Positions 58,996-61,637 of a DNA stretch of 61,637 nucleotides are shown one piece after another. Below the pieces are notes generated by a model, which saw only the letters and a program-made list of their open reading frames with translations, had not been told where the DNA came from and did no database searches. The DNA is taken from NCBI GenBank assembly GCA_002428225.1, contig DIUD01000038.1, forward strand, positions 1 through 61,637, given 5' to 3'. How positions within the stretch are numbered: position 1 is the first letter of the stretch; each line of letters begins with the position of its first letter. Both the position numbers and the translations under genes were made by a program. The stretch comes from Roseovarius sp. UBA6167 (GTDB lineage Bacteria > Pseudomonadota > Alphaproteobacteria > Rhodobacterales > Rhodobacteraceae).

Positions 58996-60372
58996 CTAGC
59001 GCCTGAGCCGCAGCGTCACCCGCTGCCCGCCGCGCTCCACGTCAAGGACAAGGCTGCGCCCGGCCTCCTCCAGCGCGCGTGCCGCCACCGCGCTGTCGCG
59101 CGTCTCGGTGCCGTTCACCCCGCGCAGGATGTCCCCCGCCCGCAGCCCCGCCCGTGCACCATAGGGTCCGGGATCCTCGACGATGACGCCCTCGGCCCCC
59201 AGCGGCAGGCGAAACGCCTCGATCACCGCCGGGTTGATGGTCGAAAGCGTGACCTCCGGCAGCACCGCGCGCGCCCCCGTCACGATGCGGTTGCGCGGCG
59301 GATCATCGGGCGCGGCGATGAGGGCCACGGTGATATCCTCGGCCTTGCCGTCGCGCAGCCGGGTGATCGTCGCCCTTGCCCCGATCCCGGCCAGCGACAG
59401 GCGATAGACCATCTCGGCGGGGCTGTTGACGGGCTGGCCATCCACCGCCGCGACCACGTCGCCCGGTTGCAGCACGCCGACGAAACCGCTCTGCGGATGG
59501 ACCTGCGAGATCACGATGCCGTCGGGCCGATCGAGGCCCAGCCCCTCGGCCACATCGGGCGTCACCGGCTGACCGCCCAAGCCCGCCCAGGGGCGCTCGA
59601 ACTCGGCCTTGCCCGCGCGCGCCTGCGCCACGAACTGCGCCACCAGCCCCGAGGGAATGGCAAAGCCGATCCCGTTCGAGCCGCCCGAGCGCGACAGGAT
59701 CGCGGTGTTGATGCCGATGAGGCGACCGTTGACATCGACCAGCGCCCCGCCCGAATTGCCCGGATTGATCGGCGCATCGGTCTGGATGAAATAACCGCGC
59801 GCGTTGCCCATCGCCGTGCCCGAGCGTGCCAGCCCCGAGACGATGCCGCTGCTGACCGTCTGGCCCACGCCGAACGGGTTGCCGATCGCCAGCACCAGTT
59901 CGCCCACCTCGACCGTGTCGCTGTCGCGCAGCGCGAGCGCGGGCAGGTCCGTCGCGCCCTCGACCTGAAGGATCGCCAGGTCCGCCTCCTCGTCGCCCAG
60001 CAGCACCCTTGCCCCGTATTCACGCCGGTCATTGAGCACCACGCGGATATCCGTCGCCTCGCCCACGACGTGATAGTTCGACACGACGATACCGTCGGAC
60101 GACAGGATCACCCCCGACCCGAGCGAGTTCTGAACGCGCGGGCGGATGGCGCCGAAATCCTGAAAGAACCGCTCGAAGAACGGATCGCCGCGAAAGGGGC
60201 TGGCGCGGGTGGCGACGACGCGGCTGGCGTAGATGTTGACCACCGCCGGGGCGGCGGCCTTGACCACCGGGACGAACCCGAGGGCGATATCCGCCTGCGA
60301 GCCGGGCACACGGGTCTCGGCCAGCGCCGGGCTGGCAGAAAGGATCAGAAGAGCGCAAAGGATACGAAACAA
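58996..60372 (-). CDS. Do/DegQ family serine endoprotease (trypsin + 2 PDZ)
   Basis: Signal peptide from TTG start, SNYHVV, INPGNSGG. Confidence 0.92.
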   Translation of the reverse strand: MFRILCALLILSASPALAETRVPGSQADIALGFVPVVKAAAPAVVNIYASRVVATRASPFRGDPFFERFFQDFGAIRPRVQNSLGSGVILSSDGIVVSNYHVVGEATDIRVVLNDRREYGARVLLGDEEADLAILQVEGATDLPALALRDSDTVEVGELVLAIGNPFGVGQTVSSGIVSGLARSGTAMGNARGYFIQTDAPINPGNSGGALVDVNGRLIGINTAILSRSGGSNGIGFAIPSGLVAQFVAQARAGKAEFERPWAGLGGQPVTPDVAEGLGLDRPDGIVISQVHPQSGFVGVLQPGDVVAAVDGQPVNSPAEMVYRLSLAGIGARATITRLRDGKAEDITVALIAAPDDPPRNRIVTGARAVLPEVTLSTINPAVIEAFRLPLGAEGVIVEDPGPYGARAGLRAGDILRGVNGTETRDSAVAARALEEAGRSLVLDVERGGQRVTLRLRR

Positions 60373-60450
60373 GACGGCCTCACCTCGTGATTGTCCTGCC
60401 AGATATGCGCGGGCGGGCGCCCCATTGCAAGAACGCGCCACCCGACAGAC

Positions 60451-60478
60451 AAAAACCCCCGCCGGGCCGGGCGGGGGC
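60451..60478 (-). terminator. Intrinsic terminator after rplQ
   Basis: CCCCCGCC-loop-GGCGGGGG-TTTTT on the minus strand. Confidence 0.75.
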
Positions 60479-60506
60479 ATGAAGGCTGCGGGCGCGTGTC
60501 CCGTCT

Positions 60507-60926
60507 TCAGTCCTCGGCGGCCTCTTCGGCCTCGAGGCGCGCGCGGTCCTCGGCACCCTTGGCGCTCGGGTCTCGGTCAACGAATTCGATGATCGCCATC
60601 GGCGCCATGTCGCCATAGCGAAAGCCCGCCTTGAGCACGCGCACATAGCCGCCCTGCCGCTCGGCATAGCGGGGGCCGAGCACATCGAAGAGCTTGGCGA
60701 CGTGCTTGTCCTGCTTGAGCTGCGCCGCTGCCTGACGGCGGGCGTGCAGATCGCCGCGCTTGCCGAGCGTGACGAGTTTCTCGACCACGCGGCGCAAGTC
60801 CTTGGCCTTGGGCAGGGTGGTCTTGATCTGCTCGTGTTCGATGAGCGAGCCGGCCATGTTCGCCCACATCGCCTTGCGATGCTCGTGGGTGCGGTTGAGG
60901 CGGCGGTATCCTCTTGCGTGACGCAT
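60507..60926 (-). CDS. rplQ: 50S ribosomal protein L17
   Basis: [29 protein letters not shown]-like segment, RYGDMAPMA. Confidence 0.98.
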
Positions 60927-61022: not shown

Positions 61023-61637
61023 TTAAAAGGCGTCCTCGAATTTCTTGGCGAGATCCTCGATATCGTCGGGCGGCCAGTCCTCGACCTCCATGCCCAGATG
61101 CAGGCCCATGCCGGAAAGCACCTCCTTGATCTCGTTGAGCGACTTGCGACCGAGGTTCGGAGTCTTGAGGAGCTCGTTCTCGGTGCGCTGGATGAGGTCG
61201 CCGATGTAGTAGATGTTCTCGGCCTTGAGGCAGTTGGCCGAACGCACCGTCAGTTCCAGGTCGTCGACCGGACGCAGCAGGATCGGATCGATCTGCGGCG
61301 AACGGCCACCGGCCGAGGTCAGACCGCTGACGACGACACCGCCGCCGACGCCGATCGCGTCGTGCATCGGCTCCGCGCCTTCGAGGGCCGCGAACACCGA
61401 CAGCTGCTCGACGAGAATGCGGGCTGCCTGGCGAACCGCCTCCTCGGGCGCGATCACGCCATTGGTCTCGACGTCGATGAGCAGCTTGTCGAGGTCGGTG
61501 CGGTTCTCGACCCGCGCGCTCTCGACCGCGTAGCTGACGCGACGCACCGGCGAGAACGACGCGTCGAGCACGATCCGCCCGATGGTCTTGCTGTCGCCGA
61601 GGTTGCGCATCGTGCCCGGCACGTAGCCGCGGCCCTT
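61023..61637 (-). CDS. rpoA: RNA polymerase alpha subunit, 3' part; appears chimeric (beta- then alphaproteobacterial)
   Basis: alpha-[15 protein letters not shown]...[12 protein letters not shown]; truncated by window edge. Confidence 0.95.

Follow-up and report, generated by a model that had tools for sequence, protein, structure and literature searches.

Natural mosaic genes, for example pbp in Streptococcus or Neisseria, arise by homologous recombination. The parents of real mosaics are close relatives; the mosaic recurs among independent isolates, and the genome has no other copy of the gene. Interspecies chimeric contigs formed at conserved regions are, for their part, reported to be common in metagenome-assembled genomes (MAGs) and to be missed by marker-based contamination estimates (bioRxiv 10.64898/2026.10.15.759294). 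The rpoA gene found at the end of the window (the whole stretch of 61,637 nt from Roseovarius sp. UBA6167 that was analysed) shares features with both situations. As in natural mosaic genes, the ancestry switches sharply inside the gene, at a stretch where the two parents are identical. As in interspecies chimeric contigs, two genomes are joined in a conserved housekeeping gene by a short repeat that matches exactly, the foreign DNA lies at a contig end and the marker-based contamination is low (1.1%). However, in contrast to natural mosaics, the donors here come from different bacterial classes, a native copy of the gene is present in the bin and the join occurs in no independent assembly examined. 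With respect to usual chimeric contigs, nothing essential is different, and the locus is unusual only in that the two pieces are joined in frame, which leaves an apparently intact open reading frame spanning two bacterial classes. Considering the RpoA family (TIGR02027; PF01000, PF01193 and PF03118), both parents possess an ordinary rpoA located in the conserved rpsM-rpsK-(rpsD)-rpoA-rplQ cluster, whereas the frame in the window is partial (204 aa) and is not the gene of one organism. We conclude that the chimeric rpoA is almost certainly a metagenome assembly artefact, in which two genomes have been joined via a 31-nt exact match. There is thus no biological mosaic gene at this locus, and the frame read in the window belongs to no single organism.

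The window is the whole of contig C34 (G000:C34) of a 1.99-Mb MAG made of 87 contigs, with a completeness of 65.8% and an estimated contamination of 1.1%. The right-hand end of this contig carries, on the minus strand, the rpoA fragment, rplQ, a gene encoding a DegP/HtrA-type protease and rarA; the features relevant to the join are collected in Table 1. Against the TIGR02027 profile, the rpoA fragment scores 175.6 bits, below the cut-off of 227.8, because the gene runs off the contig. The foreign DNA corresponds to residues 144 to about 304 of the Burkholderiales RpoA protein P0001 and so covers the final part of the N-terminal domain, then the linker and the greater part of the C-terminal domain. 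Base composition does not separate the foreign part from the native one (GC and GC3 of 0.68 and 0.91 in the foreign piece, 0.62 and 0.84 in the native rpoA, with a GC of 0.68 for the whole window) and is uninformative here because both genomes are GC-rich. An Rfam scan across the window returned zero matches. Concerning the neighbouring DegP/HtrA-type protease (window 58996-60480, minus strand), the longest open reading frame has 494 aa and begins with the ATG at 60480; the protein is called as 458 aa in other assemblies, where the start corresponds to window 60372, and this downstream start is probably the true one.

Table 1. Features of the right-hand end of the window around the rpoA join
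Feature	Position in window	Strand	Remarks
rpoA fragment, 5'-open, 204 aa	61023-61637	-	Cut by contig end
Foreign DNA, internal piece of a Burkholderiales rpoA, reaching the contig end	61154..61637	-	100% nt identity to L007
31 nt common to both parent genomes, holding the false join	61123..61153	-	Longest exact in-register run between L007 and L020
3' terminus of the native Roseovarius-like rpoA (final 32 codons and stop)	61023..61122	-	100% identical to L020 and L023
Native rplQ (L17)	60507..60926	-	TIGR00059 at 148 bits, above cut-off

At the protein level, the fragment falls into two parts. Residues 1-174 are identical to P0001 (339 aa) at 174/174 positions, the hypervariable inter-domain linker included, and at only 87/174 positions to the native Roseovarius-like RpoA. 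The situation is reversed for residues 175-204, of which 30/30 are identical to the native RpoA and 10/30 to the Burkholderiales one. These counts bear out the original prediction, which had read, from the letters alone, a betaproteobacterial body followed by a Rhodobacteraceae C-terminus. Protein searches gave the same picture. The whole fragment retrieved Burkholderiales RpoA proteins, with P0001 as best match, while residues 160-204 alone retrieved RpoA from Roseovarius and other Rhodobacteraceae (91-98% identity). The relatives of P0001 carry names of Burkholderiales or Burkholderiaceae, and the best 120 listed relatives of the body are proteins of about 330-339 aa. Within the set of named species genomes, an uncultured Burkholderiales MAG of Lac Pavin comes nearest to the donor (95% amino-acid identity); after it come other uncultured Burkholderiales/Burkholderiaceae MAGs and then Cupriavidus, Ralstonia and Oxalobacteraceae at about 79% or less. 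A natural lineage whose RpoA would combine a beta-type body with an alpha-type tail, so that no chimera would exist, can be discarded on these data. Indeed, the body relatives that were aligned all end in a beta-type tail, closing on (E/D)RP (8/8), the proteins with the most similar tail are named only after Roseovarius and other Rhodobacteraceae, and the DNA on either side of the switch is 100% identical to two different genomes.

These two genomes are represented by long contigs from public assemblies. The Burkholderiales parent is found on a 28-kb contig (Draft_10001758 of JGI metagenome 3300001605, hereafter L007), which encodes P0001. The native parent is found on a Roseovarius-like contig of 264 kb (k141_1795537 of ENA assembly ERZ27315062, hereafter L020) and on a 61,283-nt contig that the Logan assembly of SRR5323095 lists as contig 45 (hereafter L023), the latter being 100% identical to the window. 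From position 61637 to position 61123, the window is identical to L007 without a single mismatch (515/515 nt); past 61123, 21 mismatches and 2 gaps accumulate within about 68 nt. The agreement with both L020 and L023 begins at 61153 and is complete (3647/3647 nt) over the sequence compared, which reaches down to 57507 where the fetched locus stops, whereas the 117 alignable nt upstream of 61153 contain 28 mismatches to L020 and, further upstream in the foreign piece, no alignment with native relatives is possible. Between the two parents, L007 and L020, the identity spans exactly 31 nt, at window 61123-61153, and all other runs that they share in the region are of 15 nt or less. This stretch falls in a conserved region encoding the C-terminal domain of RpoA, and the join that it holds is in frame. 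The switch of ancestry is far beyond chance, given that the hypervariable linker and all third codon positions match the foreign parent. The original prediction had placed the switch in a conserved stretch of about 30 nt, which is right, but at about 61118-61148, some 5 nt away from its actual position. It had also attributed the DNA past the switch to another organism, in agreement with the 515 identical positions, and the separate searches of the two parts that it had suggested led to two different classes, Burkholderiales and Roseovarius-like Rhodobacteraceae, each at 100% nucleotide identity. On these identities, C34 is assigned to a Roseovarius-like Rhodobacteraceae up to about 61153, and its last 484-515 nt derive from the rpoA of an uncultured Burkholderiales living in a similar type of sample.

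The metagenome that contains L007 comes from the surface water of an oil-sands tailings pond, the Syncrude Mildred Lake Settling Basin, and was obtained as a 454+Illumina hybrid assembly (PMC5029510). On L007, rpoA is embedded in a betaproteobacterial L36-S13-S11-S4-rpoA-L17 block, with its own L17 gene and its own flanks. When the MAG was searched with the 7-kb region of L007, nothing further was found above about 72% identity. The MAG thus lacks further DNA resembling L007, and the foreign DNA is confined to the last 484-515 nt of C34. Wholesale contamination of the bin by a Burkholderiales genome was considered as well and was rejected, the rest of the MAG being at most about 72% identical to this region. 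ENA assembly ERZ27315062 contains both organisms, namely L020 for the native parent and another contig (L111) for the Burkholderiales one, and rpoA and rplQ are intact in each of the two. L111 is 99.8% identical to L007. Two SNPs distinguish these contigs in the part shared with the window, at window 61344 and 61348, in the hypervariable linker of RpoA; the exact donor allele of the window is the one present in JGI 3300001605. This match is a hint that the MAG may come from the tailings-pond data or from a sister sample.

The native version of the gene is also present in the bin. A profile search of the MAG showed that contig C31 ends in another rpoA piece (C31:40909-41653, 316.9 bits with TIGR02027). 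This piece is the native 5' part of the gene, of alphaproteobacterial type, and runs over 278 aa from the start codon to the contig end. The terminal 2245 nt of C31 are identical to L020 (2245/2245) and stop at the equivalent of window 61217. The native piece and the foreign piece overlap by about 150 codons; codons ~128-278 of the single-copy rpoA are thus represented twice in the bin, by different sequences, and only the version carried by C31 agrees with the rest of the genome. On L020, C31-like and C34-like DNA are contiguous and rpoA is intact. There, the sequence of C31 leads into 64 nt of native rpoA that the MAG lacks (L020:2711-2774, between the end of C31 and window 61153) and then by the sequence of C34 from 61153 downward. 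C31, on its plus strand, and C34, on its minus strand, are therefore neighbours in the real genome, and together they encode an ordinary alphaproteobacterial RpoA of 338 aa, which falls in a 90%-identity cluster bearing the NCBI name Roseovarius sp. Seen from C34, the true genome continues across the 64-nt gap into C31 of the same MAG.

Independent assemblies agree with this arrangement. The exact L17 protein of the window was found in many public assemblies, and the names given to its cluster are Salipiger, Roseovarius, Pararhodobacter and similar. For an identical L17 with upstream DNA shown, 6/6 contigs have a native-type 338-aa rpoA before rplQ. The rplQ of the window is native and of Rhodobacteraceae type, as had been stated from the sequence. 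Five contigs from other samples (L017 to L019, L021 and L022, which stem from JGI samples and from metagenomes of the subsurface and of rock porewater), with about 98% DNA identity and an identical L17, carry the native junction in 5/5 cases; as on L020, an intact rpoA links their C31-like and C34-like DNA. The chimeric join is absent from all the independent contigs examined. An exact-pattern scan of JGI metagenome contigs with a 68-mer spanning the chimeric junction found nothing, but the control designed on the native junction was not found either; this negative scan carries no weight because the JGI copies of the species have a SNP inside the pattern, the exact strain being represented in ENA and Logan records, and the control failed as well.

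The arrangement of the native gene bears directly on whether the join could be real. In such a case, a very recent homologous recombination would have replaced the body of the Roseovarius-like rpoA by Burkholderiales DNA, with a crossover in the 31 nt. The in-frame join falls where the parents match perfectly, a place at which homologous recombination might resolve too, and the two organisms do co-occur in ERZ27315062. However, C31 of the same MAG carries the native 5' part of rpoA, which in L020 runs straight into the sequence of C34, and the native gene is also found in the 6/6 independent contigs with upstream DNA. The chimeric frame is consequently not the sole version of a single-copy gene in this genome, where a native fragment lies on C31, and its junction does not recur in the independent contigs examined. 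Moreover, the patch shows 0 mismatches to its donor (515 nt), the contig stops within the patch, and no second crossover lies on the contig. In an essential, single-copy subunit of RNA polymerase, a functional hybrid built from proteins of about 50% identity (87/174) also seems a priori unlikely. Recombination would require a donor-perfect patch, coexistence with the wild type in the bin, a contig ending there by chance and a working hybrid, all together, and we regard it as extremely improbable. A recombinant rpoA restricted to a subpopulation, alongside the wild-type population that yielded C31, has an almost negligible probability. The remarkable cross-class replacement inside RpoA that the original prediction had envisaged, if the join were real, is thus left without support by the native gene on C31 and in the independent contigs, whereas the assembly chimera that it had preferred is favoured by this same C31 piece and by the uninterrupted rpoA of the independent assemblies.

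The join is an artefact in either of two ways: a wrong path was taken in silico, or a chimeric read or molecule was involved. Template switching occurs preferentially at short identical stretches, of which the 31-mer is an example. Such switching, or a ligation event, in the course of library preparation or amplification could have created a physical chimera that the assembler then reproduced faithfully, and the outcome expected is the same as for a chimera made in silico. The sample of L007 was moreover assembled from 454 and Illumina data (PMC5029510), and one long chimeric read could add about 500 nt to a contig end. Logan contigs are built from the de Bruijn graph of distinct 31-mers (PMC12424806), and L023 terminates at window 61152, i.e. 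k-1 = 30 nt into the shared 31-mer. L023 starts at the first 31-mer with a native-specific base, as a contig next to a branching node does; this break shows a branch of the graph at this point, and both continuations of the shared 31-mer would exist in SRR5323095. Such a branch is sufficient by itself for an error in silico; nothing specific speaks against a chimeric molecule, which we consider very unlikely. We infer that the error arose in the assembly graph and not in a molecule of the library preparation. In the assembly error that we favour, the assembler would have come into the shared 31 nt on the Burkholderiales path and exited on the Roseovarius path, or the other way round.

The join has no biological significance and is a matter of data quality. 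We propose to trim C34 at 61153 or, more conservatively, at 61122, and to treat 61154-61637 as Burkholderiales DNA. After trimming, C31(+) followed by C34(-) can be set adjacent, 64 nt apart. If left in place, the fragment could be taken up by protein databases under the label of a 'Rhodobacteraceae' RpoA whose body is betaproteobacterial, and such an entry would distort marker-gene phylogenies or yield false calls of horizontal transfer. The locus also provides a worked example of how a 31-nt exact match joins two bacterial classes while the contamination estimate still stands at 1.1%. Finally, the same species is present at 98-100% DNA identity in many public metagenomes, including PRJNA276305 and PRJNA257561 (subsurface/rock-porewater), several JGI samples and SRR5323095, and its contigs, which reach up to 265 kb, could help to scaffold the 66%-complete MAG.
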